Source: Patescibacteria group bacterium (lineage in GTDB: Bacteria > Patescibacteriota > Microgenomatia > UBA10105 > UBA927). Taken from it: a DNA stretch of 64,000 nucleotides. The position numbers and the translations under genes are program-made. Location of the stretch: contig JAMCTH010000003.1 of assembly GCA_023379025.1 (NCBI GenBank), forward strand, positions 17,114 to 81,113, read 5' to 3'. Of the stretch, positions 8,150-57,061 are shown piece after piece. The notes under the pieces are model-generated. The model saw only the letters and a list, made by a program, of their open reading frames with translations. It made no database searches and had not been told where the DNA came from. The number at the start of each line of letters is the position of its first letter. Within the stretch, counting starts at the first letter, position 1.

Positions 8150-8926
8150 TTATCTTCGGAACTTTTTAACATACAAGCGGTATGCAAGCGGGAAATGCAT
8201 GGCGGAAAAAAGCGCAAACAAAAATCCGTACCAACCGTCGACAAACCCTTTATGCCGGAAAAAAAGAAGAAAAAAGGTTGCCGACGGCTTTACGAGATAA
8301 TACGAAAGGGCCGTAGTGACCGAAGGGACGAGATGACGGGCGTGCAGTTCGGAAGCCTCAAGAGCTACGTACGTGCGGGCCTTTTTCCGGTATTCCCCGA
8401 TCGAATCGTACGTATAATGATGTAACGCGTGAGTGAGATGCCCGACATCCCCGTCGACCGCGATCTGCTCGTGCACGCTTTTGGCCGGAAAATGTGCTTT
8501 GCCGTTGCGGACGAGCCGTATGACGTAATCCGGATACTGGCCGCCTTTTCTGAGCCAGTGGCCCAGGAAATAATTTTTCCTCGGGAGAAAAAAACCGTTT
8601 TGCTCCGGATGAGCTTTAATCGTCGCCTCAATTTCGTTCATTAATTCTCCTGACACTTCCTCATCGGCATCAAGCTGAAGGATCCATCTCCCCCGGCAGC
8701 GATCGAGCGCTTTTTGTTTGTTTATATGGAAGATCGGAGGATTACCGGTATGGACGACGGTTGCGCCGAACGACGCCGCGATATCGCAGGTTTTATCTCC
8801 CGATCCACCGTCAACGACGATGATTTCCCCGGCCGTATCCTGCACTGAGGCAAGACACCGGGCGAGATTTCGTTCTTCGTTATACGTCGCAAGGGCGACG
8901 GAAAGCATTATGTCTTTTTTCGCCAT
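8150..8926 (-). CDS. GT2-family glycosyltransferase (LPS-core/WaaE-like type)
   Basis: 258 aa with LSVALATYNEE and DGGSGDKT GT-A motifs. A Met7 start at 8908 is possible. Confidence 0.7.
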   Translation of the reverse strand: MAKKDIMLSVALATYNEERNLARCLASVQDTAGEIIVVDGGSGDKTCDIAASFGATVVHTGNPPIFHINKQKALDRCRGRWILQLDADEEVSGELMNEIEATIKAHPEQNGFFLPRKNYFLGHWLRKGGQYPDYVIRLVRNGKAHFPAKSVHEQIAVDGDVGHLTHALHHYTYDSIGEYRKKARTYVALEASELHARHLVPSVTTALSYYLVKPSATFFLLFFRHKGFVDGWYGFLFALFSAMHFPLAYRLYVKKFRR

Positions 8927-15452: not shown

Positions 15453-17065
15453 ACGTCAAACAAAACAAGCGCCGGTTTCCCGTCCAATAGGCGCACGGTA
15501 TTGATCACATGCGCGCCTTCCGGCACCTCTTCCGGCGGCAGGATATAAAGTGTATGCGGTTCAAACGATGACGGAGTCGCTTCCACAAAATGGTATTTGC
15601 CGAATGCCGTCACGTGATAAAACCCGGCTGCGTCAAAATAGGCGTGTTTGCTGACCAGAAATGCCATGGGGTTATACCGTTCATAGAAGAGCGTATACAT
15701 ATACGCCCGGCCTATCGATTCGGTAAGCACTATCGATGAGTAGGTATTGCCGGTCTTATTTGCGTCGGCAAGGGCCTGTTTATACCCGTATTGCCACTCA
15801 CCGGAATATTCCCAAGGGTAGTGAATGTAATAGTTATGGAGGTAATAGGCAATATTACCCAGGTACAGAAACAGCACCAGCGCCACGAGAATGGAGCCGA
15901 AACGCGCTTTCCTCATGCCCTCAAGAAACCGGGAAAGCCCCGCGGCGATCACGAGCAAAAAAACCGGCAGACCGTCTTCAATCCTGAGCGCATGCGGGGT
16001 TTCGCGGGCAGTTGCCGCAGGGACAATCGCCATGACCAGCCACCAGAGGAGAAACCATCCGGCGCCGGGAGTCCTCCCCATGATCCAATACACTCCGAGA
16101 AGAAGGAACGGAAGATCAACGAGATACAGTTCTCCGATATCCTGAATGGAAAATTTGGGATTTCCGTCTCCGGTGATAAACAGGAACCGCGGCTCAAGAT
16201 TGTCAAAAAAATGTTCGAGGAACGACCGTGTATACCCTATCCTTCTGTTATGGACGAGCTTTGCCCACCAGGTGTTCCCGTCCACCGCTGAGCGCATATT
16301 TGCGGTTGCCACGATTGAGGCATCGGTAAAGATATTGACCTCATTAAACCTGAGACGCGCCTGTCTGGAAAGAAGGTGCGGAATAATCGGCAGAAGCAGT
16401 AATATGCCGATAAGGACCCCCGACGCCAAAAATTTCTTATGCCCCATAATGTCCCGGCGTACAGAGACAAAAAGCCCGAGAGCCAGAAACGGACCGAAAT
16501 ATCTGGCACTGTTGAACGTATATACACCCATGACGAACGGTATCCAGCACGCAAGGAGGACTTGCGGATGACGCCGGGCCAACAACACCAGATACGCGCC
16601 GAGCACCATGAGACCTGTAGCGATATTTGCCTCAAAACCGGCGCGCGACAACTGTATACTCCACGGAGACAGCGCAAATACAAGAGCTGCCGGAAGCGGT
16701 ATGTTTGACTTCCTGCCGAAAAGTTCCCGGCCAAGCGCAAAAAGCGCAAGAATCGTGAGCGTTCCGGCAACAGCAGACGGCAGACGGACTGCAAGCTCGG
16801 TAAGTCCCAGAAAAGCTACAAACGGCACGGTCGCATAAATAGCAAGCGGAGGCTTGTAATCCCCGTATGCGATGAACGTATCCACCGGCAAGAACCTGCC
16901 GTGTTCGTCTTTTCCCGTTTTGAGGATGCTGTATGCGTTATAACCGATTGACACCTCATCCCAGGACAGGGAAGGCGGGTTCGTATCAACATGCCACACC
17001 CTGAGGAAAAACCCTATGGCAACGATACCGGTGAGGAGTATCCATGTACGGACGGCTCTGTTCAT
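15449..17065 (-). CDS. Family-D GT39/PMT_2-type membrane glycosyltransferase
   Basis: The motif is WDEVSIGYNAYSILKTGKDEHG. The start is trimmed from 17389 to internal Met109, which gives an ATGA overlap with the upstream gene's stop. Coordinates from track arithmetic may be off by 1 against the printed numbering here. Confidence 0.7.
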   Translation of the reverse strand: MNRAVRTWILLTGIVAIGFFLRVWHVDTNPPSLSWDEVSIGYNAYSILKTGKDEHGRFLPVDTFIAYGDYKPPLAIYATVPFVAFLGLTELAVRLPSAVAGTLTILALFALGRELFGRKSNIPLPAALVFALSPWSIQLSRAGFEANIATGLMVLGAYLVLLARRHPQVLLACWIPFVMGVYTFNSARYFGPFLALGLFVSVRRDIMGHKKFLASGVLIGILLLLPIIPHLLSRQARLRFNEVNIFTDASIVATANMRSAVDGNTWWAKLVHNRRIGYTRSFLEHFFDNLEPRFLFITGDGNPKFSIQDIGELYLVDLPFLLLGVYWIMGRTPGAGWFLLWWLVMAIVPAATARETPHALRIEDGLPVFLLVIAAGLSRFLEGMRKARFGSILVALVLFLYLGNIAYYLHNYYIHYPWEYSGEWQYGYKQALADANKTGNTYSSIVLTESIGRAYMYTLFYERYNPMAFLVSKHAYFDAAGFYHVTAFGKYHFVEATPSSFEPHTLYILPPEEVPEGAHVINTVRLLDGKPALVLFDV

Positions 17066-18366
17066 GTTTTTTGTGTGTCCCAAAACTTGAGGACTGCCAG
17101 CATAAAAAGCGTCGCAAGAAATGCCATGTGGCTGTTGTTGAAATACCTGCTGAAATACCAGATGACCGAAAGCGTTACGGCATAGCCCACGAGAAGATGC
17201 GGCGTATCGGGATGTTTCAGGTAGTACCGGAGGGACCAGAGTAGCACGGGAATCCCTAAGCCAAGCTGCCAGAATGCGAACGGATAATAGGCATGGATGT
17301 CGCGGATCAGCCTGAATTCGTAGAGCACCATTCCGAACCCGTAGCCGGATATCGGATAGCTGCCGGCGGTATTGCCCGAAAGATACCATACCGTGCTGTC
17401 AAGAAATGCTTTCGGGTCCCAGAGAAGAAACGGTCCGGCAACGACGGCAACGACGCCGGCAAGGACGGCAAGACCGGGGAGCATCCTCCGGACGGAACCG
17501 CCGTATGACACCCATAATGCCAGAAGATATCCGGGTATTGCTATCCAGATGGTCTGTTTTGAAAGTACGGCAAGCGCAAATAGCGCCGCGGAAAGGACGC
17601 GTTGTTTCCGTTCCAGAAGAAAAATTGCCAGTATATACCAGAAAAGCGCAAATGTATCGCTTCTTCCCTGGATGAAATAGTCGACGACTCCGGGAGAAAG
17701 CGCCGTCAGTATAGCGGCCAGCCGGAAAAGCGGCGGGTGGGAAAACCATTTCCGATACACCAGGATAAGTCCGGCAAGGCAAAAAAGAAGCACCATCCTC
17801 CCGTCGAAATACCCGATGGTGTGGTTTGCGAGAAAATAAAACGGAAACGGGAACAGGAGATACCACGGCGGCATGACAAAGTGATAGAGCGCGGGATTGA
17901 CTGCGGGCTTTCCCAGCTCATCGTAATGAAAGGCCTCTACCGGCGTACCGAAATAGGTTTCCTTGTAGGGATTTTTGTGGAGTATGAGATAGCGCATCGC
18001 CGCTTCCTGCTGAAGGATGATGTCATGGACACCCCATACCGGGGCAACCCCGTGACGGTCAACGATCGCCGTCACGGTAGCGCCCCCGACGACGATACAG
18101 AGGGCCGCTCCCAGAAGGAGGTTCCTCAACGCTTCCGAGGAGTACCAGGACTTCGCCCGGATAAAAAGCGCGAGGAGAATCCCGCTCGTGAGAAGAACAA
18201 ACAATAATCCGAAAAGCCAGTACGGCGTTCCCTGTATCGGCAGAATCCGGTAGGTCATGACTACCGGCACGGACAAAATCATGAGAAGGACAAACTCAAA
18301 AGCCGGAAACCAAGTCATAGTGGCCATTGTACTAGATCTTATCTCCTTCTCCAACCGCGCTTTCAT
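17062..18366 (-). CDS. Polytopic membrane protein of about 430 aa, unknown type (possible DUF2029/GT87-like GT-C)
   Basis: 434 aa with at least 10 TM helices. It is aromatic-rich (NPYKETYFG, HYDELGKP) and has ATGA overlaps at both ends. Confidence 0.4.
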   Translation of the reverse strand: MKARLEKEIRSSTMATMTWFPAFEFVLLMILSVPVVMTYRILPIQGTPYWLFGLLFVLLTSGILLALFIRAKSWYSSEALRNLLLGAALCIVVGGATVTAIVDRHGVAPVWGVHDIILQQEAAMRYLILHKNPYKETYFGTPVEAFHYDELGKPAVNPALYHFVMPPWYLLFPFPFYFLANHTIGYFDGRMVLLFCLAGLILVYRKWFSHPPLFRLAAILTALSPGVVDYFIQGRSDTFALFWYILAIFLLERKQRVLSAALFALAVLSKQTIWIAIPGYLLALWVSYGGSVRRMLPGLAVLAGVVAVVAGPFLLWDPKAFLDSTVWYLSGNTAGSYPISGYGFGMVLYEFRLIRDIHAYYPFAFWQLGLGIPVLLWSLRYYLKHPDTPHLLVGYAVTLSVIWYFSRYFNNSHMAFLATLFMLAVLKFWDTQKT

Positions 18367-19907
18367 AGACTCCGGACAAACCTATATATCCTGTCCCGGC
18401 CGTATTGAGCGGTATCCGACAGCGCCCATCCGTTCATGCGTTTTTTGGGATAATCGCTTTTACAGATGGCCTCATAACAGGAAACCGCAATCTCCTTCCA
18501 TGCCGCAGCCTCTCCACCGACAGGACAATGATCCGAAATACATACCACAAAGAGCACCGGGTAATTCTCGTCATAGATAAATCTCGGCTGCACACCCTGA
18601 ACCGACAAAAAATACCGGAGATGATAGTCCGAAGTCACGTCAGGACTGAGGAGCGTAAATGCGAACGGTCTGCCGTTCGAGAGCGATACCATATCGCCGG
18701 TCAGCGTTCGGGCACGCGCGATATCTCCGGGTTCCGGGAAAACATCCCCCCGGGTAAACGGAAGCACCAGCAGCAGGACCAATATGGCTGCTACCAGATA
18801 TCCCGAAAAAACCCGGCGGAAAGGAAAAAGCACGTATCCCGCCAAAAAATACGGAATGACCGTCAGGTAATAGACATAGTGTTCAAACAGTGCTTCCCTG
18901 TACCGGACGACCGGTATACTCCCGAGAAGAAACCACAGGACAAAAACCACCGCCCAGAACTGACGGCTTATGAGGGGGACAATGAGGAGAATTCCCAGGA
19001 CCAGCCACTCGGGCTTTCCGGCGGGAACGCTCAGGATGTGGCCCGTCAGACCGAAAATCACGGATAGGGCGTCATGGAGACTTGATGCGAGAGGCCCGGC
19101 CGTTTCGGACGGGAGAAGCATGGAAACCAGAAAGTCGGAAAAATCGACGAACCGGTGGCTGGATTCATACACAAGATACGGCAGATTGACAAGTACCGCG
19201 CTTAAGACGCCCAAAAACGCCCAGAGCACTGCCTGTCTTCCCTTACCCCGGCGGATTTCCCGGATCATAAGGATAAAACCGATAAAGAAGGCGAAGAAGG
19301 TGTTGAATATCGCGGCGTAATGAAACTGCACGACAGCTCCAGCCGCGGCTCCAAGAAGTATAAACCACCGCGCGTCATGATCCCCGTATATTTTATAGAA
19401 TGCAAGAATGAGAAGTGCCGTAAAAAACGGAACGGGCGCAGGATTCCATATCGCGATGTTTTGATTGACAACGGACGGAGAAGCCGCATACAGAAGTCCG
19501 ATGCCGGTACCGATCATGCCGCCGAACATACGCGTTCCGAGGTACCAGAGAATAAGCGCCGTCAGTACGCCGAACGCAGCCATAGGAATGGCCATAGATA
19601 CGGGCGAGCCGTGGGTTATCGCGTACAAAGGCAAGAGCAGGTAATAGTAGAGAGGTCCCTGGCGGAACCCGAGACTGGTTTCCGGCCCCACGAGAGGCAG
19701 CGTGTGGTTTTCCAGCGTCTCATGCAGCACCTCGGCGGTTCTTCCCTGATCGGCGAGAAACCGGGTACGCGCCTCAAGGTGGTAAAACCGGAATGCCGCA
19801 GCCACTACAAAAACCGCTGCGGCCAACGCAAGATACCGCTTCTTTGATGCCGCCCTCTGATATACTATTGTCAGCATAGTACTTCGCATGAAACCGACAC
19901 GAATCAC
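18363..19907 (-). CDS. Family-C GT-C fold membrane glycosyltransferase
   Basis: 514 aa with the loop-1 motif FLADQGRTAEV...LVGPETSLGFRQGPLYYY. Alternative starts are Met7 (19889) and Met11 (19877). Any of the three starts overlaps the divergent gene at 19888. Confidence 0.6.
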   Translation of the reverse strand: MIRVGFMRSTMLTIVYQRAASKKRYLALAAAVFVVAAAFRFYHLEARTRFLADQGRTAEVLHETLENHTLPLVGPETSLGFRQGPLYYYLLLPLYAITHGSPVSMAIPMAAFGVLTALILWYLGTRMFGGMIGTGIGLLYAASPSVVNQNIAIWNPAPVPFFTALLILAFYKIYGDHDARWFILLGAAAGAVVQFHYAAIFNTFFAFFIGFILMIREIRRGKGRQAVLWAFLGVLSAVLVNLPYLVYESSHRFVDFSDFLVSMLLPSETAGPLASSLHDALSVIFGLTGHILSVPAGKPEWLVLGILLIVPLISRQFWAVVFVLWFLLGSIPVVRYREALFEHYVYYLTVIPYFLAGYVLFPFRRVFSGYLVAAILVLLLVLPFTRGDVFPEPGDIARARTLTGDMVSLSNGRPFAFTLLSPDVTSDYHLRYFLSVQGVQPRFIYDENYPVLFVVCISDHCPVGGEAAAWKEIAVSCYEAICKSDYPKKRMNGWALSDTAQYGRDRIYRFVRSL

Positions 19908-21540
19908 TTCCCTACCATATTATATAGCGATTATTCTGGTATCCATACTGCCCCTTGTGTCCTTATTCGCAACACCGGCGCTCTTTCATACCCACGACGG
20001 TGCGGTGCACCTCCCGAGAATGGCCGCGTACTTCAAGGCGCTCATGGATGGTCAGGTACTGCCGCGGTGGGCAGGCGACCTCAATTACGGGTACGGACTG
20101 CCGCTTTTTAACTTCATCTACCACACGCCGTATCTTATCTCCTCTCTTTTCATCGGACTCGGAGCGAGCCTCGTCATGACCTTTAAAATCGTTGCGGCTC
20201 TCAGCTTTATTCTGGCCGGGGTGTTTATGCTTCTGTTTGCCCGGGAACTATGGCATAACGACAGAACAGCATTGCTTGTTGCCGTATTTTACCAGTTTGC
20301 GCCGTTCCGGCTGGTGGAGCTTATGGTGCGCGGGAGTTTCGGCGAAATGTACGTCTATGCATTCATCCCGCTTGTCCTCTACTTTTTACTCCGCACACTT
20401 CGCGGGGCCAACGCACGGTATATTGCAGGCCTTGCGCTTGCTGCAGCACTTCTTGTCATTTCGCACAATTCGATAAGCCTCGTGATGTTCGGCGTCGCAG
20501 TGCTGTTTCTTTTCCTTATGCCGGCAACGGTTTCTTCGCGGATCCGTGGAGCCCTGGGGCTCGGAGCGGGACTGGCCGTTTCTGCGTTCTATTGGATACC
20601 GGCACTTCTCGAGCACAAATACACCTACGGCGACCTTTTTATGAAAAATCTGTTCCGGTCGTACTTTCCCTCACCCCTTGATCTTCTTTTCCCCAATATC
20701 ACCAATGCCCCCGCATTTCAAAATGGCGGCGTTTCCGTCCAGATCGGCCTTTTCCATATTCTGGCTTTCGCAGCCGTTCTGTTTCTTTTCCTCAAGCACG
20801 CGAAGCTCCCGGAGCATTCACGCCGTATCTGGTATCTGTCGCTTACGGCGGCGGCTGTTGCCGTCTTTTTCATGTCCACGTGGTCCCTCTGGTTCTGGAA
20901 CCACATCGCAATCCTCCGCCAGTTCCAGTTCCCGTGGAGGCTCCTGTCCGTCGTCAACCTGGCATCGGCACTCTCAGCCTCCGCATTTATGGAACTCACT
21001 TGGTTTAAAAAGCCGGCGGGCTACATCGCGATCCTTGTTCTCGTCATCATATCCACGGCCTGGTTCTGGAAGCCGCCGCTCGGATACGACCGCATAGAGA
21101 ACGAATCCGTCTACTGGAACTATCCCCTGGATACGACCTATTTCGGAGAAACGGACGTCATCTGGTCCGCCGGTCCCGCAAAAAAATACCCGCCGTCCCA
21201 GGTCTCGGTAATTGCCGGTAACGCAACGGTTTCTGCTGTCACAAAACGCTCCAACCTTCACACGTATGCAGTCGATGCGTCCGGACCGGCATCGCTTGTC
21301 GACGAAACAGAGTATTTCCCTGGGTGGCACGTCTATGTGGACGGAGCCGCCGTACCGATACAGTTCCAGGACCAAAACTGGCGCGGACTCATAACCTATG
21401 CGGTGCCGTCAGGCCGGCACACGGTCCGCGTGAAGTTCGACTTAAGCGGCATACAACGGCTGGGGACCATAATAAGCGTCGTTTCCGTCATAGCGCTTGG
21501 GACGCTCTTCCTTCTCGTCCCAAGGAAAACAGTCTCATGA
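19888..21540 (+). CDS. Family-A large polytopic membrane protein (HDG-motif)
   Basis: 550 aa with HTHDGAVHLPRMAAY...PRWAGDLNYGYGLPLFNFIYHTPY. It is the first gene of the only plus-strand block. Confidence 0.55.
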   Translation: MKPTRITSLPYYIAIILVSILPLVSLFATPALFHTHDGAVHLPRMAAYFKALMDGQVLPRWAGDLNYGYGLPLFNFIYHTPYLISSLFIGLGASLVMTFKIVAALSFILAGVFMLLFARELWHNDRTALLVAVFYQFAPFRLVELMVRGSFGEMYVYAFIPLVLYFLLRTLRGANARYIAGLALAAALLVISHNSISLVMFGVAVLFLFLMPATVSSRIRGALGLGAGLAVSAFYWIPALLEHKYTYGDLFMKNLFRSYFPSPLDLLFPNITNAPAFQNGGVSVQIGLFHILAFAAVLFLFLKHAKLPEHSRRIWYLSLTAAAVAVFFMSTWSLWFWNHIAILRQFQFPWRLLSVVNLASALSASAFMELTWFKKPAGYIAILVLVIISTAWFWKPPLGYDRIENESVYWNYPLDTTYFGETDVIWSAGPAKKYPPSQVSVIAGNATVSAVTKRSNLHTYAVDASGPASLVDETEYFPGWHVYVDGAAVPIQFQDQNWRGLITYAVPSGRHTVRVKFDLSGIQRLGTIISVVSVIALGTLFLLVPRKTVS

Positions 21541-23909
21541 ATAAACCGTTGCTTTCCTTTCTCATACCGCTCGTTTTCGCCGTGAGTATCGTTTCGCTGT
21601 TTTGTTACAAAACGGTCCTCCGGCAGGAAGTTCCGTTCCCCGGTGACCTCCTGGTCGCAGAGTACAATCCGTGGAAAACCTATTCGTTCCTGGGATACGC
21701 TCCGGGCTCCTATCCCAACAAGGCACAGTTTTTTGACACCCTGAGGCAGCTTTACCCGTGGCGGACCCTTGCAACGGAGCTCGCCAAACGCGGGACGCTG
21801 CCCCTGTGGAATCCCCATAATTTTGCCGGAAGCCCGCTCCTTGCCAACTTCCAGTCCGCGGTCCTCTACCCTCTGAATATGCTGTACCTCGCGCTTCCCC
21901 GGGTTCCCGCATGGACGATCCTCACCCTGCTTCAGCCGTTTCTCGCGCTCCTGTTTACCTATCTCTTTCTCAAAAAGCTCGGCGTGTCTTCCGTCCCCGC
22001 GTGGTTCGGAGCCGTAGCATACGCATTTTCTTCTTTCATGACCGTGTGGATCGAGTACAACACCATCGGGCAGGTGATCCTCTGGCTGCCGCTCATTCTC
22101 CTCTCTATCGAACATCTGAGGGGTTTATTTTCCGCTACATGGTATGTGACCGGCATTATCGCCCTGGTCATGGCGGCACTCGCCGGACATCCTCAGGTAT
22201 TTGGTTACCTCTGGGTATTTGCTCTTCTTTACATGCTCTTCCGCTTTCCCGGAAAAAACTACCCCGCGGGTATCGCGATGTTTGCCCTGCCGATTGCCAT
22301 AGCAGGGGCGCAGCTTGTGCCCGGAGCCGAGCTTACCCTCCTTGCCGCGCGGAGCAGTCACACGGCATCGGAGTTCCTTGATAAAATCCTGATCCAGCCA
22401 TGGCAGCTTCTCATGGTACTGGTGCCGGACTTTTTCGGTAGTCCCGCGACGCGTTCCTACTGGCCCGCGGATACGTATGTCGGCAAAGTCACCTCGGTCG
22501 GGCTTGCGGCGCTCCTGTTTGCACTGGGATATATCGCGACGAAGCGGGACAGCCTGACAAAATTTTTTCTCTCGGCAATCGGCGTCGTAATCCTTCTCGT
22601 CACTGCCAATCCCGTCACCGCAGTCATCTACCGCTATCCCGTTCCCTTTATCTCCACGAGCAGTCCGACGCTTATGGTATTTATCGCGGAATTTTCCCTC
22701 GCGGTTCTTGCAGCCCGCGGCATGGACGCATTCCGGAGACATGTATGGAATATCCGCGCCTTCACTCTGGTCATGGCACCTGTCGCGGCTGTCCTGGTTC
22801 TCCTCTGGGCCGGAGTGCTTCTTGCCGGGCATCTTCCTGTTTCCTGGGCGGCGCACCTTCCGGCATCACGCCGGGTGCTCTTCCTTGCTTCCGGCATCAG
22901 TGTGGTTTCCGCCCTTTTATTTCTTACGGCCAGAACCAAACAAAAGTTAATGACACTTATCCTCATCCTTTTTTTCTTCCTTGAGGTTGCGGATCTCTGG
23001 CAGGCATTCCGGAAGTTTACGCCGTTCGTGCCGACCACACTCGTCTACCCGCCGACGTCCGTTACCTTCTATCTTGGGGAACATGCCGGTATCAACCGGT
23101 ATTGGGCGCTTGGCGCCGCATCGATTGAGGCAAATTTTGCGACGCTCCTCGGCCTCTACGCTCCAGAGGGGTATGATCCGCTGTATCCGAAAATCTACGC
23201 GCAGTTTATCGGCGCAAGCCGCACCGGTACGCTGCCTCTATCATTTACGGACAAGACACGCTCGGACGCCGTAATCGCTCCTTCGGACGGGAGCGATCTT
23301 CTCACGAATCCGTTCCGGAGGCGCGTTCTCGATGTTCTGGGAGTGCGGTATATCCTGGACGTGCCGGCTAATCACAACACCGAGTCGACACTTCCCCCGG
23401 ACGTATTCCCGAAACTAGCTGACGTCAACGGCTGGACCGTACTTGAAAACACATCGGCTCTTCCGCGGATGTTCCTCGCCGGAGACGCGATCGCGGCCCG
23501 CGCTCCGGAGCAGTTTGCCCGGGAGTTCTTCTCCCCGTCGTTTGATCCGGGAAAGACGGTAGTTCTTGACCGTCCGCTCCCCATGCCGCTCAGTAACGCG
23601 GCAACAGGCTCCGTACATCTCCGTTCCTATACCGCTGACAGCGTCGAAGCGGAAACCCAAAGCAGCGGAACGAAACTTCTCTTCCTTTCGGATACGTATT
23701 ATCCGGGATGGAAGGCTTATGTGGACGGAAGACCCGCGGAGCTTTACCGCGCAGATTATGCATTCCGCGCGGTCCCGGTGCCCGGCGGCAAGCATACGGT
23801 CGTCATGCGGTACGAGCCGGCATCACTCTGGATCGGTATTGCGATTTCGCTCCTCGGAATTCTTGGTACAATAGCATCAATTGCTCTCTTTCAACGGAAA
23901 ACGGCATGA
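21537..23909 (+). CDS. YfhO-family membrane glycosyltransferase (family E)
   Basis: The N-terminal multi-TM region has LPLWNPHNFAGSPLLANFQSAVLYPLN, a WNPY-F-G motif I recognise as YfhO-like. It also has a large C-terminal domain. The start is trimmed from 21324 to the ATG at 21537, which overlaps the upstream TGA as ATGA. Confidence 0.65.
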   Translation: MNKPLLSFLIPLVFAVSIVSLFCYKTVLRQEVPFPGDLLVAEYNPWKTYSFLGYAPGSYPNKAQFFDTLRQLYPWRTLATELAKRGTLPLWNPHNFAGSPLLANFQSAVLYPLNMLYLALPRVPAWTILTLLQPFLALLFTYLFLKKLGVSSVPAWFGAVAYAFSSFMTVWIEYNTIGQVILWLPLILLSIEHLRGLFSATWYVTGIIALVMAALAGHPQVFGYLWVFALLYMLFRFPGKNYPAGIAMFALPIAIAGAQLVPGAELTLLAARSSHTASEFLDKILIQPWQLLMVLVPDFFGSPATRSYWPADTYVGKVTSVGLAALLFALGYIATKRDSLTKFFLSAIGVVILLVTANPVTAVIYRYPVPFISTSSPTLMVFIAEFSLAVLAARGMDAFRRHVWNIRAFTLVMAPVAAVLVLLWAGVLLAGHLPVSWAAHLPASRRVLFLASGISVVSALLFLTARTKQKLMTLILILFFFLEVADLWQAFRKFTPFVPTTLVYPPTSVTFYLGEHAGINRYWALGAASIEANFATLLGLYAPEGYDPLYPKIYAQFIGASRTGTLPLSFTDKTRSDAVIAPSDGSDLLTNPFRRRVLDVLGVRYILDVPANHNTESTLPPDVFPKLADVNGWTVLENTSALPRMFLAGDAIAARAPEQFAREFFSPSFDPGKTVVLDRPLPMPLSNAATGSVHLRSYTADSVEAETQSSGTKLLFLSDTYYPGWKAYVDGRPAELYRADYAFRAVPVPGGKHTVVMRYEPASLWIGIAISLLGILGTIASIALFQRKTA

Positions 23910-25546
23910 AAAGACTGTTCACGACCAAAAGGAATATGACGGTAACCCTCACGTTTTTCGTGATTCTCGCGATGTCCTTGGCTCTCCGAACCTACCGCTT
24001 AAACGACGTACCGCCAGGGGTCAACCGGGACGAAGCATCCATCGGCTATACCGCCTACTCGCTCCTTCAAACCGGCCGGGATGAGTACGGTCGGTTTCTG
24101 CCGCTTTCATTCGAATCTTTCGGGGACTGGAAACTCCCCCTCTACATCTATCTCACAGTGCCGGTCGTAAAAGTTCTGGGGATGACGGATGTTGCCGTCC
24201 GGACCGTATCGGTTCTTGCCGGGGTCGGAACGGTTGCCCTCACCTTTGTCCTCGTCCGGACGATGTTCGGCAGCGCCGTCCTTTCCCTCCTTTCTATGGC
24301 GGTTCTGGCACTGGCGCCTTGGCACATCCATATTTCCCGGGTCGAATCGGAATCCAATACCGCCGTATTCCTCGTGACCCTCGGGACAATTCTTTTCATA
24401 AAAGGCATACGCAAAAACGCGCCCTATCTCTTTCTGAGCTTTGTCCTCTGGGCGCTCACGTATTTCACCTATGCCGGAAACCATGTATTTACGACACTCT
24501 TTGTCCTGGGGATTCTCGTCCTGTATGTTCCCAGGATCCGCTCATCCCGCCAGGCCAAAATCGGCATCGGCGCATTTCTGGTCCTGGCCGCAGTTATCTT
24601 TTCGCAAACGCTGTTCGGGGCGGACCGGACGAAACTTACCGGCATCAGTATCTTCAACTCCCCGAACGTCATCTACCGGAACATCGATCTCCCGCGGCTG
24701 GATTATGCCGATCCCCGATCGCTTCCGGCAGTTCTTTTTCATAACAAAGTTCTCTATGGCCTAACGACTGCAGTCGAGAATTACGAAAAGGCTTTTTCCG
24801 CACAGTTTCTGACGATCATGGGCGGCACGAATCACGCGCACAATATCGAAGGGTTCGGGAACATGTACCTTGTGGAGTTTCCACTTCTATTCCTCGGGCT
24901 TTTTTGGCTCCTCGGCAAACGGAAAAACGTTCACGCGAAACTTCTCCTCTGGTGGATCCTGATTTCACCGGTCGCCGCGAGCATCACCTCGGATGCGCCG
25001 CACAGCAACCGCATGTTTGCCGTGTTTCCGGCGCTTGCCGTCACGGTCGCGCTCGGGATCTGGTGGATCATGACGGAACTCATTGAAGGGAAAAGATGGC
25101 GGGTCCTCGCTGCCGCAGCGCTCATCCTCACTTATGCCATAAATGTCGGCCAGTACCTGGACCAGTACTACAACCATTTCCCGCTCCACGAGTACCAGTA
25201 CTGGGGGGTAGGGTACCGCAGCGTTGCCGATATGGTAAACAGTCCGGAATACAAAACGGCAAATGTCATCATGTCCCACCCGGAACAGTCGCCATACATC
25301 TTTATGCTCTTTTACGGAAACTACAACCCTGCCCTCTACCGGAAGCAGGCGGTTCGCTACCCACCGACGCCGGACGGGTTTTACCATGTCAGGGCATTCG
25401 GGCGCTACCGGTTCCGGGCAATTGACTGGGGACAGGATATGAAGCTCCACAACACCATCCTGGTCGACGACTACACCGCAATCCCCGACGCCTACCGGGG
25501 AAAAGCCCTGCACCTCAAACAGTTTGGAGTAGTATATTTGAAGTAG
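23906..25546 (+). CDS. Family-D GT39/PMT_2-type membrane glycosyltransferase
   Basis: The motif is NRDEASIGYTAYSLLQTGRDEYG. The start is trimmed from 23708 to the ATG at 23906, which gives an ATGA overlap with the upstream stop. Confidence 0.7.
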   Translation: MKRLFTTKRNMTVTLTFFVILAMSLALRTYRLNDVPPGVNRDEASIGYTAYSLLQTGRDEYGRFLPLSFESFGDWKLPLYIYLTVPVVKVLGMTDVAVRTVSVLAGVGTVALTFVLVRTMFGSAVLSLLSMAVLALAPWHIHISRVESESNTAVFLVTLGTILFIKGIRKNAPYLFLSFVLWALTYFTYAGNHVFTTLFVLGILVLYVPRIRSSRQAKIGIGAFLVLAAVIFSQTLFGADRTKLTGISIFNSPNVIYRNIDLPRLDYADPRSLPAVLFHNKVLYGLTTAVENYEKAFSAQFLTIMGGTNHAHNIEGFGNMYLVEFPLLFLGLFWLLGKRKNVHAKLLLWWILISPVAASITSDAPHSNRMFAVFPALAVTVALGIWWIMTELIEGKRWRVLAAAALILTYAINVGQYLDQYYNHFPLHEYQYWGVGYRSVADMVNSPEYKTANVIMSHPEQSPYIFMLFYGNYNPALYRKQAVRYPPTPDGFYHVRAFGRYRFRAIDWGQDMKLHNTILVDDYTAIPDAYRGKALHLKQFGVVYLK

Positions 25547-25680
25547 CTACTGAAGAAACCTTTAAGTTAATTTTTTTCTCCGAGTCTTTTTCTTCGTTCT
25601 CCACCTAAGGAAATTACTGCCTATCAATACTTTATGGTTACGTCGGAAAAAACCAAGTTGTACGGCGTGAAAAACTGTAG

Positions 25681-25866
25681 TTAGTCAAAAATTACTTTAT
25701 TTGAGGAGTAATTTTTTCTGTAGTTTTCGACAATCTCCATCTGCATCTTGTTAGATTCATGCAAGGCACGTTTAATTATCCGCTTTTTTTCTTTTGCGGG
25801 GTAATCAAAGTATGAACGACCCGTTGATACTTTGCCGGTAAGCTTCCTGATAATATTCCTGATCAT
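25681..25866 (-). CDS. Small basic hypothetical protein (61 aa) coupled to the zeta-like gene
   Basis: It lies in the AT-rich island, and its ATG overlaps the zeta-like 3' ORF stop as ATGA. I recognised no motif. Confidence 0.3.
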   Translation of the reverse strand: MIRNIIRKLTGKVSTGRSYFDYPAKEKKRIIKRALHESNKMQMEIVENYRKNYSSNKVIFD

Positions 25867-26578
25867 ATCTCTAATTTATATTGATCCAATGCCTTAGACA
25901 AGGATTCTGGAGTATACCCCAAATTTACATACTTATCAACATTATGCACGTTAAAATCAGACTTTTCAATACCCTTCAGTATGTTCTTCTTAATAACAGT
26001 AACCTCTATTTCTGGGTATACTCGCTTAATTTTGGCTACTGTATCTAAGGCGTCAAAAAAAGATTTTAGAAAAAATCCTTGGGTATAGGTCTTCCTTCTA
26101 ATTTTTCTCTTTTTTTTGTTAATCCCCACGATACCAACGGATCTTGATAAATATATACAATTGATATTTTACGCTTATGCTTAATACACCTTTTAATATT
26201 AGCTTCTGCATGATCATATTGAGACATTGTGGAGTCAAGCAAAAAATCAATATCATTTGCAAATACATGGTCAAGTAATTTGTTTACCCCCGCATAAGCC
26301 GCACCCTGAATTTCCATAGCATTTGTCTTATTGTATTGCGGAAGGAAATCCCTTATTTCATCGGCATCTATCCGAACAATATGGCGTGAATTATCATGTT
26401 CACATAGCTGCTGAATAAAGGCTTTAGAATATTCAGTTTTTCCAGCACCTGGAGAGCCAGACATAAAGAATGCTGCGGGGTTCGAAACTGTTAGATAAAT
26501 ATCGGGATCAGCGAAACGTTTAATGAGTTCCTTCTTGTGAGATCTAATAAACAGTACGGCATCATCACTTTTACTCAT
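25863..26578 (-). pseudogene. Zeta-toxin-family P-loop kinase gene interrupted by a -1 frameshift (or slippage site)
   Basis: The 5' ORF 26066..26578 has a Walker A motif GSPGAGKT and an RIDADEIRDFLPQY segment like zeta/PezT. Its 3' continuation is a second ORF, 25863..26129, in the -1 frame. The two frames meet at an A8 run, acaaaaaaaagag. Confidence 0.6.
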
Positions 26579-26735
26579 TGCGGTTAATTATACAACATGA
26601 TTATTTAGCAAACCTATCTGTAGGTAATTCACCATACGCTCTGTCGATAAGAATCGATACAACTCCACCCACGAGGCTATGTCTGTGTTCGAAAATCACT
26701 CCCTCCGCCTCGTCTCCTCAAAAAAACTATCCTGC

Positions 26736-28214
26736 TTATTTCTTCCACTCTTCCGTTGCGCGGTAGACGGATTCGGCTGTGACCGGTATCCATCCTGCCC
26801 GGGAGAGTTCGGCGCTGGTCGAGCTGGTCAGGTCCACCACCTGGTACCCGAGTTCTTCCCCGGCAGCAACCGGACGTTTGAAGCGCCCCGAGTAGGTTGC
26901 GATCCCGACTCCCATGGCAAGTCCGTCCGCGGAAAGTTTCCCCGAGGCATCCAGGTAGAGAGCAAGCGGTGCACTGACTCCTACGGTTTTGTACTTGAAA
27001 TCATAAACGGCAAATGTTTTTCCCGGGTAATCAGTGATAAGCTTGTTCGCCCAGCCACCGGTTTGAATCGCCGTGAAGTTTGATGCCTTCGCAATCTGTT
27101 GGACCGATGCCCACACCGAAAGCATAACTACTGCCGCGGTTATCGCGACACCAAGACTTTTTTGCCAGCGGATGAGCCGCGATAGCACCCAAGCCGAGGC
27201 AAGGATTACGAACGGGTGCGCGAATACGAGATAGCTGGAAAAAAGCGGGGTCCGTACATACCGGAGCGAGAGAATGAAAAGGAGAAGCGAACCCAGTATG
27301 TACCCCCAGTATTTCGGCAGATCCCGGCGCAGGGCGGAGACGGCAGCGGAAACCCCTACTCCTCCCATCAGCGCCATACCGACCCACTTATTTCCTCCGG
27401 TTATCAATCCCCATTCCCCCGGCCAGAAAGAAACGAGGTAGGTAAGCCATCTTCTTCCGAGCATTTCATAGGTCACACGGTACTGGCCTACCGTGTAGTA
27501 GCCGATAAACCCGCGGACATTGATAAACTGGTGCAAAAGGTCAAAAAGAACAAGCGGCAGTAACGGAAGCGTGAAACCGACGAGAAAGAGTGCCGTTGCT
27601 GTCGTTCCGGGAAACCCCCAGAGGAGGACGAGTACCGGAAGGGTAAAAAGAAGTGCCGCGCCTTCCAGGTGTATACTCGCCGAAAGCGCAATGAGAAAAC
27701 CCGTAAGGAAAAGGTACCGGGCCTGTCTGGTTTTTCCCCACCGGATACCCGCCCAGATGACCCCGAGGGCGCAGAGCCCAAGCGGCGACTGGTTTGTGAG
27801 ATTTACGGACTGCCCGATCGCGGCGGTTGATACCGCGGCCAACGCTCCTGCGATAAGTCCCAGGCGCGGGCTTTCCATTTCGCGCCCCACCATGTAGATC
27901 ATAAATACAAACAATACGGACAGGCACGTCATGGCAACCCATGGTGCAATAAGTTCTCCACGCCCTAAAAACGTTCCGGCCATGATGAACCAGTACCATT
28001 CCCCTCCGGTCTGGAACGGTCCGGCGGAAGAAAACGGACCCAAAAGCGGAAGTTTATGGGCCGCCAGGGCAAACCGCGAAAGGAGTGCGTCATGCGCCTG
28101 GTCATAGGCAAGCCCCCAGCGGGACGGATAGTCCACAAACCGTAAAAGAACGGAAGCAAGGAGAATCAGGGGAAGAAACAGACGGTCACGGCTTACCGGG
28201 GTAGATCGTTTCAT
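26736..28214 (-). CDS. Family-C GT-C fold membrane glycosyltransferase
   Basis: The loop-1 motif is YDQAHDALLSRF...LLGPFSSAGPFQTGGEWYW. The start is trimmed from 28373 to Met54 at 28214, which gives an ATGA overlap with the upstream GT2 gene's stop. Confidence 0.55.
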   Translation of the reverse strand: MKRSTPVSRDRLFLPLILLASVLLRFVDYPSRWGLAYDQAHDALLSRFALAAHKLPLLGPFSSAGPFQTGGEWYWFIMAGTFLGRGELIAPWVAMTCLSVLFVFMIYMVGREMESPRLGLIAGALAAVSTAAIGQSVNLTNQSPLGLCALGVIWAGIRWGKTRQARYLFLTGFLIALSASIHLEGAALLFTLPVLVLLWGFPGTTATALFLVGFTLPLLPLVLFDLLHQFINVRGFIGYYTVGQYRVTYEMLGRRWLTYLVSFWPGEWGLITGGNKWVGMALMGGVGVSAAVSALRRDLPKYWGYILGSLLLFILSLRYVRTPLFSSYLVFAHPFVILASAWVLSRLIRWQKSLGVAITAAVVMLSVWASVQQIAKASNFTAIQTGGWANKLITDYPGKTFAVYDFKYKTVGVSAPLALYLDASGKLSADGLAMGVGIATYSGRFKRPVAAGEELGYQVVDLTSSTSAELSRAGWIPVTAESVYRATEEWKK

Positions 28215-29131
28215 GGTTCGGATAGGAGTCGTCTGTCGGAAACAGCTGCCGATGCGGCGGCGCATTTCCTGCTTCGGAGTATCGCGGGACAGAGGATACA
28301 CGCGCGGGCAAACCCCAGAAGCATCGGCATGTCTCCTCGAAAGACTGCACGGATCAGATGGTACGGAAGCCACAGAAGGTGGCTCATCATGAGCCCCGTG
28401 TCCGTAATGTTTTTCCAGATAAAGATATACTGGTTCCGGTATGCAATAGTTGAAACCGTATTCCCGGAAAACTTCTGCCGGATAGCACCGGTCTCATGGT
28501 AGTGCCGGACAACGCTTTTTCCTTCAAACGCTATCCGGTACCCTGCTTTCCGCGCGCGGTAGGAGAGATCTATATCTTCCCAGTAAAATGGATTGTACAG
28601 AAGATCCATTCCGCCCAGCCGGTCCCAGATGTCTTTACGGAACATCGCGCTCCCGCCGGAGGCCCAGGATGTGTCGCTTCGACCGGTGTCTCCTCTCCGG
28701 TGTACTGCCACACCCCGCTGCCATGTCATGATTCCCCGGCCGCGCTCAACGGTCTGCCCGTGTTCCATGCTTTTATCGAGAAACCCGACGGCGAACATAT
28801 CCGGATCGGAGAAATGAGCGATGCCGGGAGGCAGATAATCCTTCTCCGGCTCAATATCACTATTGAGAAGTACGACTATCGGCGTCGTACTTTCGGCAAC
28901 ACCGCTATTGACTGCCGCGGCAAATCCTCCGCGTGTTCTCCGGCGGATGACACGTATGTCGGGAAACTTCCCGGCAAGATAGGTGCCGGTGCCGTCATCG
29001 GAAGCATCATCAACCACAACGATCCTGCTTTTGCCGGAGTAAGCAAAGACCCGCGGGAGATGTTTTATGAGGAGCTCCTTCCCGTTCCAGGTCGGGATAA
29101 CGATGGTGATATCTTTTGTCGTGTAGTTCAT
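28211..29131 (-). CDS. GT2-family glycosyltransferase
   Basis: 306 aa with ITIVIPTWNG and VVVDDASDDGT GT-A motifs. Confidence 0.75.
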   Translation of the reverse strand: MNYTTKDITIVIPTWNGKELLIKHLPRVFAYSGKSRIVVVDDASDDGTGTYLAGKFPDIRVIRRRTRGGFAAAVNSGVAESTTPIVVLLNSDIEPEKDYLPPGIAHFSDPDMFAVGFLDKSMEHGQTVERGRGIMTWQRGVAVHRRGDTGRSDTSWASGGSAMFRKDIWDRLGGMDLLYNPFYWEDIDLSYRARKAGYRIAFEGKSVVRHYHETGAIRQKFSGNTVSTIAYRNQYIFIWKNITDTGLMMSHLLWLPYHLIRAVFRGDMPMLLGFARACILCPAILRSRKCAAASAAVSDRRLLSEP

Positions 29132-31431
29132 AGGCCCGATATCCGGTAGCTTACCGTATGCCGTCCTGCCGGCACGACGACCCCGGCATACAGGTAATTT
29201 GTTCTGTACACCGGCACTCCCTTGCCGTCAACAGCAGCCCGCCAACCGGGCAGGAAACTTATGCCGATTACAAGAAGCCGCGGGACGGCAACGGATACAT
29301 CCGCCGTAAGACCGGCATCGGTATACGATGCAAGCACTACATGCTCATCTGAATGTATCGGAAGCGACAATACGGGGACCACCCCTTCGACAACAGCGCC
29401 GTATCCGGAGATAAAGCCGGGCCGGAACATACGGGCAAGCGCCTTTTCTCCGGTTTCCGCGGTATCCACTTCCCGGGCCAGATACACTCTCGGAAGCGCA
29501 CGGCTGTCTTCATAGACAATGGTCTGTCCCTCGGAAAACACCTTTCTGAGATAGGGTTTGTGGAGCTCCTCGAGACTTAGGACATAGCGCGCACCGAAAA
29601 GCGGAAACACCGGAGACTCCGTATTGGTGAACGTGATGATGCGGTTGAACCCAAACGGCGGCCGGACGTCGGGTTTGCCGCGTTCGGAAACGGCCGCAAG
29701 TTCTTCATACCGCGAGAAGTAAAGGGGGTCGTACCCTCCGATATCCTCTATACCGTAGTATCCTGCGGTATTCGGCGGCAGGAGTCTCGGGTCAAGGCTT
29801 GCAACCCGGAAGGGCTTGGGCTGTTTCTCGAGAAAAAGGAGGACCGGAGTTTCCGGGAAAAAGTAGCTCCGCGGCGTAAACGGCGTGAATTTGCCGGCAA
29901 AACGGAAAAGGTCAAAAACGACAAGAACCAGAAGTGCGCCGGAAAGTAGTCCGGAAATAAACTTCCTCCCCCCGAATATCCGGAAAGCCAATAACACAGC
30001 CAGAGTCGCTCCGGTAAGTACGGCCGGCAGGATCAGATTTCTCCGGCTGACGAGGAGGTCCGTCGCAAGATTCGGCATATGGGAGAAACCTCCGGCAAAT
30101 TTCGTAACAAGAAAAAGAAGGAGGAGCGCTGCTCCAAACAACACTGCAAGTATGGCCGGGGCGCGATCCCGTTTTTTGAGCCACACGTCAAATCCTATGA
30201 CGGCAAGGACGGCGAGCGAAAAGTCTACAACCACCATAAGGCGCGTCGGCTGGAGAACGGACCAGACGGGTATGTGCAACCGGTACGGCAGGGAGGATAT
30301 GCCGTCCGGAAGCATCAGAAGAAGTGCTGCCAGAAGACCCGCAACCCAAAACCACACCCGTTTTCCTCCTACACGGAGAGCGGCATAAAACGCAAATATG
30401 AGCGGTATGATCCCGATATAGCCTACGAACTCTCCGTAGTTCCAGACTCCCCAGTAATTCATGGTTGCCGGATTGCCGAAAAAGTCCGGAGCCAGAAACT
30501 GTAAGAGATTCTGCCAGGGAAGAAACCATCCGGACTGCATCCACTGGTCCCGGGAAAGGACGCGGGATGATACAGATATAAACTCCGCAACCGGAAGCCA
30601 CTGGAAAAGCGTGAGAAGTACGGCTATGCTTGCCGCCGTAGCTACGGTCAATACCCCTTCCTGAACCCGTGAGGTTTTGAGGAATTTTCTCTGCAACCAG
30701 ATCCGGGCAAGGACGTATGCGGCCTCAACAAGTACTGCATAGAGAAATACCTGGCTGTGACCCGCGAAAAACTGGCAGGCAAGCGATCCCGCGAGCACCA
30801 TAAACCACACGGCCTTGTTCCGGGACTGCCGCTTCTTTCCGGCATAGGCAAAAAGGTTATCTGCCGAAAGCAGTATAAGCGGTATCCAGAGTGCCGTATG
30901 GACAATCGTCCCCCAGGTGAGCCACGCGACGGAAAAACCGCAAAAACTCCATGCCGCCGCTCCGAGAAAGGATGCCGGCGGACTTATGCCCGTATTCCGG
31001 AGGAAAAGGTAGAGGAAAAACCCTGCAAGAAGCGGCGTCAGCACTATGAGCGCGGTCCATGCCTCGGGAAAGGGAAAGAGGAAAAACAGAATATTCAGAG
31101 GATAGAGCGCTCCGCTCTGGATATTGCCGATAAGCGATGTCCCGGAAAACGCATAGGGATTCCAGAGGGGCAGCGTCCCGCTTTTCAGATCGTCAACAGC
31201 GATCTTCCTCCAGGGAATCTGCTGCCGGACGGGATCGGTAATGAGAAAATTTTTGTACGGGACGCCGCGGGGATTGGTCGCGGCATAGAGGTCCCGCCAC
31301 GGATAGTAAAGCCCGATCAGCGTATCTGTCGGTACGGGTATGCGGCCCCGGAGAATTCCCGGCAGGAAAAAGCCGACCGCAACGGCAAACATTATGCAGA
31401 GCATGACAGCGTCATAGCGCATACGCCTCAT
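29128..31431 (-). CDS. YfhO-family membrane glycosyltransferase (family E)
   Basis: The motif is LPLWNPYAFSGTSLIGNIQSGALYPLN. The start is trimmed from 31593 to Met55 at 31431, which gives an ATGA overlap with the upstream GT4 gene's stop. Confidence 0.65.
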   Translation of the reverse strand: MRRMRYDAVMLCIMFAVAVGFFLPGILRGRIPVPTDTLIGLYYPWRDLYAATNPRGVPYKNFLITDPVRQQIPWRKIAVDDLKSGTLPLWNPYAFSGTSLIGNIQSGALYPLNILFFLFPFPEAWTALIVLTPLLAGFFLYLFLRNTGISPPASFLGAAAWSFCGFSVAWLTWGTIVHTALWIPLILLSADNLFAYAGKKRQSRNKAVWFMVLAGSLACQFFAGHSQVFLYAVLVEAAYVLARIWLQRKFLKTSRVQEGVLTVATAASIAVLLTLFQWLPVAEFISVSSRVLSRDQWMQSGWFLPWQNLLQFLAPDFFGNPATMNYWGVWNYGEFVGYIGIIPLIFAFYAALRVGGKRVWFWVAGLLAALLLMLPDGISSLPYRLHIPVWSVLQPTRLMVVVDFSLAVLAVIGFDVWLKKRDRAPAILAVLFGAALLLLFLVTKFAGGFSHMPNLATDLLVSRRNLILPAVLTGATLAVLLAFRIFGGRKFISGLLSGALLVLVVFDLFRFAGKFTPFTPRSYFFPETPVLLFLEKQPKPFRVASLDPRLLPPNTAGYYGIEDIGGYDPLYFSRYEELAAVSERGKPDVRPPFGFNRIITFTNTESPVFPLFGARYVLSLEELHKPYLRKVFSEGQTIVYEDSRALPRVYLAREVDTAETGEKALARMFRPGFISGYGAVVEGVVPVLSLPIHSDEHVVLASYTDAGLTADVSVAVPRLLVIGISFLPGWRAAVDGKGVPVYRTNYLYAGVVVPAGRHTVSYRISGL

Positions 31432-56464: not shown

Positions 56465-56505
56465 TCTTCTATGATAGACACACCGCGGGGAAAATAAAAG
56501 AGCGT

Positions 56506-56838: not shown

Positions 56839-57061
56839 ATAAAAAATCTAGGTAATATTTTCTGCTATCCACCGATCAATCGGGATAGTTTGATCGTATA
56901 TAATAACGTCTTCACCAGTTCCAGGTTCTTCAAAATCTAACTAAAAGATATTGAGTGGGTTTAGTCATAGCCTAATTATATACCGCTGACGAGTATATTT
57001 GCGCTACCCACCCCCTGCCTAGTTGCTCTTTTGGGTTGGAGTAGCTATCATATAATCAGTT

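Follow-up and report, generated by a model that had tools for sequence, protein, structure and literature searches.

Our analysis of a 64,000-nucleotide stretch of DNA from a Patescibacteria metagenome-assembled genome (candidate phyla radiation, CPR; 53% G+C), which we call the window, leads us to favour, on balance, the view that the tetranucleotide CATG at 19887-19890 marks the junction of two divergent GT-C glycosyltransferase operons whose promoters are interleaved among the coding starts. Gene A heads the operon on the plus strand and gene C the array on the minus strand (Table 1), and under any of the three possible starts of C this interleaved architecture is unchanged.

Two genes that meet head to head

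Genes A and C are both genuine protein-coding genes, as each scores above its Pfam cut-off (A against PF10131 with 57.6 bits for a cut-off of 26.4, C against PF13231 with 41.5 bits for a cut-off of 26.1) and each has homologs. The product of A is identical to the NCBI protein P0010, with 803 homologs found; the C protein P0001 (504 residues, start 19877) is an NCBI glycosyltransferase family 39 protein, and its C-terminal domain is rich in cysteine. The start of A is unambiguous, since ATG 19888 is the sole candidate before the first membrane helix: a TGA (19858-19860) keeps the frame from opening before 19861, and the next in-frame start, GTG 19957, falls within that helix. For C the minus-strand open reading frame 18363..19907 holds three in-frame starts, GTG 19907, ATG 19889 (residue 7) and ATG 19877 (residue 11); the candidate after these, TTG 19826, lies within helix 1.

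Read directly on the plus strand, the junction runs ...gtcagCATagtacttcgCATGaaaccgacacgaatCAC... / ...cctcTGaTATACTattgtcagCATagtacttcgCATGaaaccgacacgaatCACttccctaccatattatatagcg..., and the coordinates, residue numbers and CATG overlap given in an earlier note on this DNA are exact. The two genes overlap by 2 nt if C begins at ATG 19889 and by 20 nt if it begins at GTG 19907, and a 10-bp gap separates them if it begins at ATG 19877. The earlier note's claim that the genes leave no intergenic promoter space thus holds: whichever start C uses, at most 10 bp (19878-19887) is left, and neither promoter can therefore be intergenic.

A probable promoter for gene A within gene C

Where, then, would transcription of A begin? 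We hold it very probable, from the sequence and its counterparts in relatives, that the promoter of A is the extended -10 element TGaTATACT, which stands 21 nt before the ATG. The element keeps the TG and the three key positions of the hexamer; that is, we find a TG, one base and a TAnnnT hexamer at a suitable distance from the gene, an arrangement that needs no -35 element, and neither reading of the sequence nor a promoter scan reveals a -35-like hexamer 16-18 nt away. It lies in the C codons for Ile-Val-Tyr (ATA GTA TAT), codons 4-6 (or 8-10), and this codon choice has a probability of about 0.02 given the amino acids in this genome. Since the transcription start site is predicted near 19873, both ATG candidates of C lie within the DNA for A's leader, which would be about 15 nt long and has no Shine-Dalgarno sequence. 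For a leaderless A the only hexamer we find is a weak TAGTAC (3/6, no T at -7) 5 nt upstream.

The presence of such a motif is not evidence in itself. The pattern TGNTAWAMT has 6 matches in 128 kb (both strands), TGaTATACT among them, and over the genome as a whole the window's -10 candidates, counted as TATAAT and TGNTAWAMT, are about as frequent as chance predicts, which weighs against reading any one of them as a promoter. We therefore rely on positional conservation in relatives. These come from two independent scans, one with an A alignment against one genome per species and the other with a C alignment against metagenome contigs; start positions were derived from tblastn hits and open frames, duplicates were removed, and both scans together gave 25 non-redundant loci with a divergent A-C pair. 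In 24 of these, TGnTATAAT, usually as TTTGnTATAAT, stands 7-49 nt before the ATG of A, and the remaining one (L093) has TGATAAAAT. The same box is present in a locus where the partner of A is an unrelated GT-C protein (L089, partner X) and in loci where it is a protein of family B, and is absent from A genes internal to operons. It is intergenic in loci with a gap between the genes; in loci with CATG or CATnATG it falls within codons 3-19 of the partner, where it is translated as II (frame 0) or as HYT or YYI (frame 1), with IVY (frame 2) in the window. Because it recurs where the DNA is noncoding, where it is translated in any of three frames and where the partner is unrelated, we take the box to be a DNA signal, an extended -10, and not a protein motif. 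The spacing of 21 nt in the window falls in the 20-23 nt range of one subclade.

At the A-B junctions (L013, L014, L054, L065, L006, L157, L159, L161) the family-B gene has TACAAT 6-8 nt before its ATG, a leaderless geometry, and A has TTTGnTATAAT 8-22 nt before its own. In L065 the two boxes abut (ATTGTAcTATAAT) as a textbook bidirectional promoter.

Fused starts in related loci

Homologs share the fused arrangement, a check that the earlier note had called for. Thirteen of the 25 loci have starts fused at CATG (L005, L008, L009, L024, L034, L047, L078, L095, L096, L097, L104, L119, L155), two have CATnATG (L003, L011) and ten have a gap of 33-183 bp (L002, L019, L077, L079, L080, L085, L093, L094, L103, L111). 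At most CATG loci the frames are open only a few codons upstream and CATG supplies the only ATG, GTG or TTG before helix 1 (for example in L024, L047, L119 and L104), so that the 2-nt overlap there is not a choice of annotation; gene callers accept the CATG start in L005, L024 and L097. Since relatives share fused starts, the CATG reading is credible in the window too.

How often would such a fusion arise by chance? Judged on the window alone, a C before the ATG of A together with the right frame is expected from composition with a probability of about 0.27 x 1/3 = 0.09, a value that grows to about 0.2 once the frequent C at -1 of operon-first A genes, overlapping or not, is taken into account. 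The coincidence is weak from the window alone; across the relatives it is clearly not chance. Among 3069 CATG sites in the 1.11 Mb examined, 23 have both ATGs opening reading frames of at least 150 codons; 19 of these are junctions of family A with a divergent partner, and the other 4 are internal in-frame sites of the same loci (L034, L078, L104, L134). The CATG type is scattered over four or more clades of a neighbour-joining tree built from C proteins, mixed in with the gap type.

Two findings from the relatives weigh against our reading of the window. Its C protein is a lone deep branch beside gap-type loci, 27-33% identical to any relative. The A proteins closest to its own (55-59% identical) have the GT87-like family B as partner, across gaps of 59-74 bp, so that the A-C junction of the window may be of independent origin.

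Some loci carry apparent footprints of switches between gap-type and CATG-type starts. In L095 (C on the plus strand from 2408) there is an out-of-frame ATG where gap-type relatives start C, and L096 has ATA (Ile12) at the position of the start ATG in its close relative L077. In L089, A is joined at CATG to a 506-residue GT-C protein unrelated to family C (L089:960-1110, with A on the minus strand from 1036 and the partner on the plus strand from 1035); the partner has no BLASTP similarity to family C, a member of which follows downstream. Its N-terminal tail (MPGVRPGLIITKQ) reads through A's leader and the TTTGtTATAAT box, and looks as if it had been recruited from promoter and leader DNA.

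A candidate promoter for gene C within gene A

Because C starts to the right of A's -10 element, its transcription must begin at or to the right of 19877 or 19889, which places its promoter inside A. We consider it probable that this promoter is the cluster of overlapping -10-like hexamers TATATAATATGGT, made up of TATAAT (19924-19919), TAATAT (19922-19917) and TATGGT (19919-19914). TATAAT and TAATAT would give transcription start sites near 19912 and 19910, and the first AUG would then be that at 19889. A leaderless geometry is found for GTG 19907, with TATGGT at -12..-7, but not for 19889 or 19877. The cluster lies in codons 10-13 of A, Pro-Tyr-Tyr-Ile (CCA TAT TAT ATA), which include the rare codons CCA (3%) and ATA (23%). 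The G+C content at third codon positions is 0.35 in the first 20 codons of A against 0.65 in the rest of the gene; codon choices are unusual at both boxes of the window, and G+C content dips locally. The earlier note held that each promoter must lie inside the other gene's coding sequence. For A this is borne out by the extended -10 within the first ten codons of C, and for C the promoter inside A has the standing of a candidate.

In relatives the first codons of A are under an unusual constraint. Among 19 relatives whose A begins with MKSFKHY, synonymous sites in codons 2-13 are nearly frozen (TCA 16/16, GCA 19/19, TAT 18/18), the fraction of major codons being 0.84 there and 0.52 in codons 14-100 (Mann-Whitney p = 2e-6) and third-position identity 0.67 there and 0.35 from codon 14 on. 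The conserved stretch has a sharp edge at the C of CATG, with no conservation upstream of it, and runs to nt +41. Since synonymous sites are frozen, these first codons must hold a functional DNA or RNA element. On the minus strand the stretch reads TTGCAA-17 nt-TTAAAT-6 nt-ATG of the partner, the spacing of a sigma-70-type promoter for a leaderless partner mRNA, and the frozen element is probably the partner's promoter.

The frozen stretch (nt +4 to +41 of A, in L005, L008, L024, L078, L085, L103 and others) occurs in CATG-type and gap-type loci alike and contains the palindrome ATTGCAAT/TTGCAAT at nt +31 to +38. It is present in 19/19 MKSFKHY A genes paired with C or X and in 0/49 other MKSFKHY A genes.

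Several observations count against a promoter of C in the first codons of A. The Tyr-Tyr codons that create TATAAT in the window are partly explained by a conserved tyrosine. A sigma-70 two-hexamer scan of 19400-20400 found no promoter for A or C, its one match lying inside A downstream of A's start; such a scan is blind to extended -10 promoters that lack a -35. The relatives' putative partner -10, TTAAAT, has a T in place of the critical A at -11, a role of the frozen stretch at the RNA level in A's own translation is conceivable, and the A gene of the window has no frozen MKSFKHY/TTGCAAT motif.

A very different explanation would dispense with a promoter of C at the junction, so that C is served by antisense read-through from minus-strand genes beyond 25.6 kb or is poorly expressed. 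We regard this as highly improbable. It is consistent with the result that neither an intrinsic terminator-like site in 25400-26800 nor a canonical -35/-10 pair for C was found, but it needs 5.7 kb of head-on transcription through an operon with a strong promoter, it would leave an array of at least seven translationally coupled genes without a promoter at its head, and an A-partner junction with frozen DNA in the first 13 codons of A is conserved in relatives.

Elsewhere in the window, -10 boxes resembling TATAAT end 5-8 nt before the start of genes without a Shine-Dalgarno sequence (57051-57064, 56464-56477, 45092-45104, 40365-40377, 26578-26592), which suggests that these operon-first genes have leaderless mRNAs. 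Given these -10 boxes so close to operon-first starts, short or absent leaders seem normal in this organism. Genes internal to operons have ATGA overlaps or GGAGG-type sites (e.g. 50770, 42040, 39628, 8926).

The start codon of gene C

We tentatively place the start of C at ATG 19889, in the CATG overlap, with a confidence just short of even. This start is favoured because it provides the first AUG on transcripts from 19907-19912 and because the arrangement is fixed in many relatives. The earlier note had listed it as one of three options, and it has gained from the relatives with the same arrangement (13 of 25, as above) and lost from the public gene calls, as NCBI and Logan both place the start at 19877, which weighs against the CATG overlap. 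The Met7 version of C has no entry in the protein collection. C has no close relatives, the best match among 5.8 billion proteins being 33% identical. Nor does tail length exclude any start, since N-terminal tails vary within the family: the number of residues before the R-[LFVM]-[YWFN] motif (RLY, RFY and variants) is mostly 19-31, and 47 in L095.

Use of ATG 19877 is possible, if rather doubtful, and the same holds for the picture that goes with it, an ordinary tight divergent pair with a 10-bp gap and embedded promoters in which CATG is a by-product without a role. Besides the NCBI and Logan calls, this picture has on its side that 19877 gives the tail length closest to that of most relatives, that C is common at -1 of A's ATG even where genes do not overlap, that an in-frame CATG is expected by chance at about 10-20% of such junctions, and that the lineage of the window is placed among gap-type loci. 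Against it, ATG 19889 lies 12 nt upstream in frame and would be met first on any transcript containing 19877, the CATG start is obligatory in many relatives, and gene callers are split on such 5' overlaps, one protein cluster holding versions of 487 and 475 residues. The predicted fold also has the 19877 AUG in a short hairpin and the 19889 AUG unpaired, a weak point (z = -0.55).

A six-base inverted repeat, TACTAT-N7-ATAGTA (19863-19881), reaches across the -10 box of A and codon Met11 of C. It is the source of this hairpin in the 5' RNA predicted for C, where the AUG at 19877 is hidden and that at 19889 stays unpaired, a fold that is not statistically significant.

We think it improbable that C is translated from a leaderless mRNA starting at GTG 19907, which would make a true head-to-head coding overlap of 20 nt with A. 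In favour of this reading, TATGGT carries T, A and T where a -10 hexamer has its three key positions, its place is precisely -12..-7 of the GTG, and starts with a leaderless geometry are frequent both in the window and in relatives; mycobacteria reportedly use leaderless GTG starts. On the other hand, GTG is a weaker start, no relative needs an overlap of more than 2 nt, the better hexamers TATAAT and TAATAT put the transcription start site 3-5 nt upstream of the GTG, and the extra residues VIRVGF have no counterpart in homologs.

A possible mechanism

Returning to the interleaved arrangement, we can sketch how it might work. A would be transcribed from its extended -10, without need of a -35, within the first codons of C, and the start codon or codons of C would lie in the DNA encoding A's leader of about 15 nt, which lacks a Shine-Dalgarno sequence. 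RNA polymerase for C would start to the right of 19877 or 19889, from the -10-like cluster within codons 10-13 of A. From the positions of the -10 elements, 19861-19866 on the plus strand and 19914-19926 on the minus strand, we infer that the two promoters face each other about 55 bp apart. This would mean full overlap of the polymerase footprints and, from 19873 to 19907-19912, some 35-40 nt of complementarity between the 5' ends of the two mRNAs. The consequence would be competition or interference between the three-gene plus operon and the minus array, and not independent control.

Could such a junction act as a switch? We think it unlikely that the CATG junction, in this genome and other Microgenomates-type Patescibacteria, is a conserved switch that sets expression one way or the other. 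If it were, the promoters would be mutually exclusive, each in the N-terminal codons of the other gene, with mRNAs complementary at their 5' ends or leaderless, and a cell would express either the A-YfhO-PMT operon or the C-led array. The result would be a compact, regulator-free toggle that varies surface glycans, and the N-terminal tail of the partner would have evolved by reading through A's promoter and leader. When inverted repeats that might serve as an operator were sought near the junction, the one result was an 8-bp GC-rich repeat within C (19795-19823), folding of the predicted RNA 5' ends found no significant structure (z -0.55 to +1.17), and Rfam has no match in 19600-20200.

Neighbouring genes and strand switches

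The plus-strand block A-YfhO-PMT covers 5,659 bp (19888-25546), and the same gene order is also present in L159. On the minus strand, the family-B gene, read from its most upstream ATG (18366), has an ATGA overlap with the stop codon of C; the Logan call starts it at 18318 (418 residues), leaving a 44-nt gap to C. Several PMT_2 genes follow family B, and C leads at least seven translationally coupled genes.

Table 1. Positions, in window coordinates, of the features at the A/C junction and of the adjoining genes.
Feature	Position	Strand	Remarks
CATG tetranucleotide	19887..19890	.	A start ATG 19888-19890 with CAT 19887-19889 (reverse complement, C Met7)
Gene A	19888..21540	+	550 aa; GT-C fold membrane glycosyltransferase, Pfam PTPS_related; heads plus-strand operon
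Gene C	18363..19889 (drawn from Met7)	-	PMT_2/GT39-like GT-C glycosyltransferase; heads long minus-strand array
ATG (Met11)	19875..19877	-	C start in NCBI and Logan gene calls; 10-bp gap to A
GTG	19905..19907	-	Most upstream possible C start; TATGGT at its -12..-7, leaderless geometry
TGaTATACT	19858..19866	+	Putative extended -10 element for A, 21 nt before its ATG; predicted transcription start site ~19873
TATATAATATGGT	19914..19926	-	Overlapping -10-like hexamers, candidate C promoter; predicted transcription start site 19907-19912
YfhO-family GT-C gene	21537-23909	+	ATGA overlap with gene A
PMT/PMT_2 GT-C gene	23906-25546	+	ATGA overlap with YfhO-family gene
GT87/ALG3-like gene (family B)	17062..18366	-	Second gene of minus array

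The earlier note described the A/C junction as the only strand switch in the glycosylation locus. This needs correction, since a convergent switch at about 25.55-26.07 kb ends the plus block, with further minus-strand glycosyltransferase genes beyond it (PMT_2 26736-28214, GT2 28211-29131, YfhO-like 29128-31431); the A/C junction is the sole divergent switch in the locus. The stretch 25547-26578, at the convergent end of that block, is AT-rich and breaks up the run of glycosyltransferase genes with small open reading frames and a 170-residue Zeta_toxin/AAA_33-like gene (26066-26578, minus strand). Possibly it was inserted in connection with an inversion of the 5.66-kb block.

A 560-residue protein encoded at 8908-10590 on the minus strand has no Pfam hit, yet tblastn aligns it with A at about 36% identity over 560 residues, which makes it a distant paralogue and gives the locus two family-A genes. 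The longest open reading frames of the YfhO and PMT genes run about 70 codons upstream of the real starts (21324-21536 and 23708-23905) and overlap the preceding gene; a naive reading of longest frames thus leads to false same-strand overlaps of 200 bp.

Significance

More generally, the junction offers a conserved and concrete case of promoter signals within coding sequence, from bacteria whose genomes are very small and which have yet to be cultured. A promoter pattern emerges for this group: operon heads have an extended -10 of the form TTTGnTATAAT, lack a Shine-Dalgarno sequence and have leaders that are short or missing altogether. Public gene calls disagree on 5' overlaps of this kind, one cluster containing both the protein from the CATG start and a version 12 residues shorter, and annotated starts such as that of C in the window may for this reason be wrong. 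The arrangement points to promoter competition as a link between two glycosyltransferase operons, both probably involved in building the cell surface. DNA doing two jobs is neat and not unprecedented, and we see no new kind of molecular system here. The greatest value of the site is as a clean test bed for the constraints on promoters in coding sequence and for the promoter and leader rules of the CPR.

Comparison with known systems

Divergent overlaps are the rarest class of gene overlap (331 of about 15,000 overlaps in one survey and 457 of 42,055 in another, or about 1-2%), and their scarcity has been attributed to the need to encode start signals; where they exceeded 60 bp, all examined cases were mis-annotations (PMC2174442; PMC2478687). 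The commonest phase among them is 123:213, with 59% of the 331 (PMC2174442). Genes A and C resemble such pairs in that both are real, they occupy opposite strands and their 5' ends touch or overlap, CATG being phase 123:213. Unlike typical divergent overlaps, the 2-nt overlap is conserved across deeply diverged lineages and one promoter can be pinpointed inside the partner; the overlap is obligatory in 13 relatives and, in the window, tentative.

Among worked-out systems, the Ecl18kI restriction-modification genes are the closest analogue. Its divergent genes have facing promoters that compete, and one transcription start site sits across from the other gene's start codon (PMC2760811). The likeness lies in divergent genes with promoters pointing at each other, which in the window is a predicted geometry. 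In Ecl18kI the genes are separated by an intergenic region, and the methyltransferase binds an operator there; the A/C junction has no intergenic DNA, and both of its predicted -10 boxes lie in coding sequence.

A further comparison is with the bidirectional promoters of Warman et al., in which symmetric overlapping -10 elements lie between two transcription start sites 7-25 bp apart, mostly 18 (bioRxiv 10.1101/2020.01.31.928960). Gap-type relatives, with TATAATA/TATTAT, fit this scheme, having an AT-rich -10 on both strands and the ATG of C 16-21 nt downstream of the minus hexamer. Could the window share one AT-rich box in the same way, with overlapping -10 elements and start sites about 18 bp apart? 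The minus-strand TAGTAT (19867-19862) does overlap the plus-strand TATACT by one base, which is the 18-bp geometry. However, the minus-strand transcript would then start near 19855, downstream of all three C starts, as it would in all CATG-type relatives, and use of TTG 19826, which comes next in the frame, would cost the protein half of helix 1. A shared promoter of this type is most unlikely here, and we rejected it on geometry, as the TATACT/TAGTAT pair at 19861-19867 cannot serve C. With the -10 boxes flanking the start codons, the layout in the window and at CATG-type loci is crossed instead of back to back.

M. tuberculosis commonly has divergent leaderless promoters set close together, prpD/Rv1129c being one example (PMC3898074). 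These actinobacterial pairs have a TANNNT -10 a few bases before the start, no Shine-Dalgarno sequence and divergent neighbours that are both leaderless, and the same geometry is seen in the family-B partners of A and in the L011 pair. The A/C junction of the window differs in that its host is a Patescibacterium, that A would have a leader of about 15 nt, and that only GTG 19907 would be strictly leaderless for C. What appears to set the A/C junction apart from all of these cases is that it has no intergenic DNA, that a promoter is demonstrable inside the partner in several frames, and that the arrangement is conserved across a CPR lineage.

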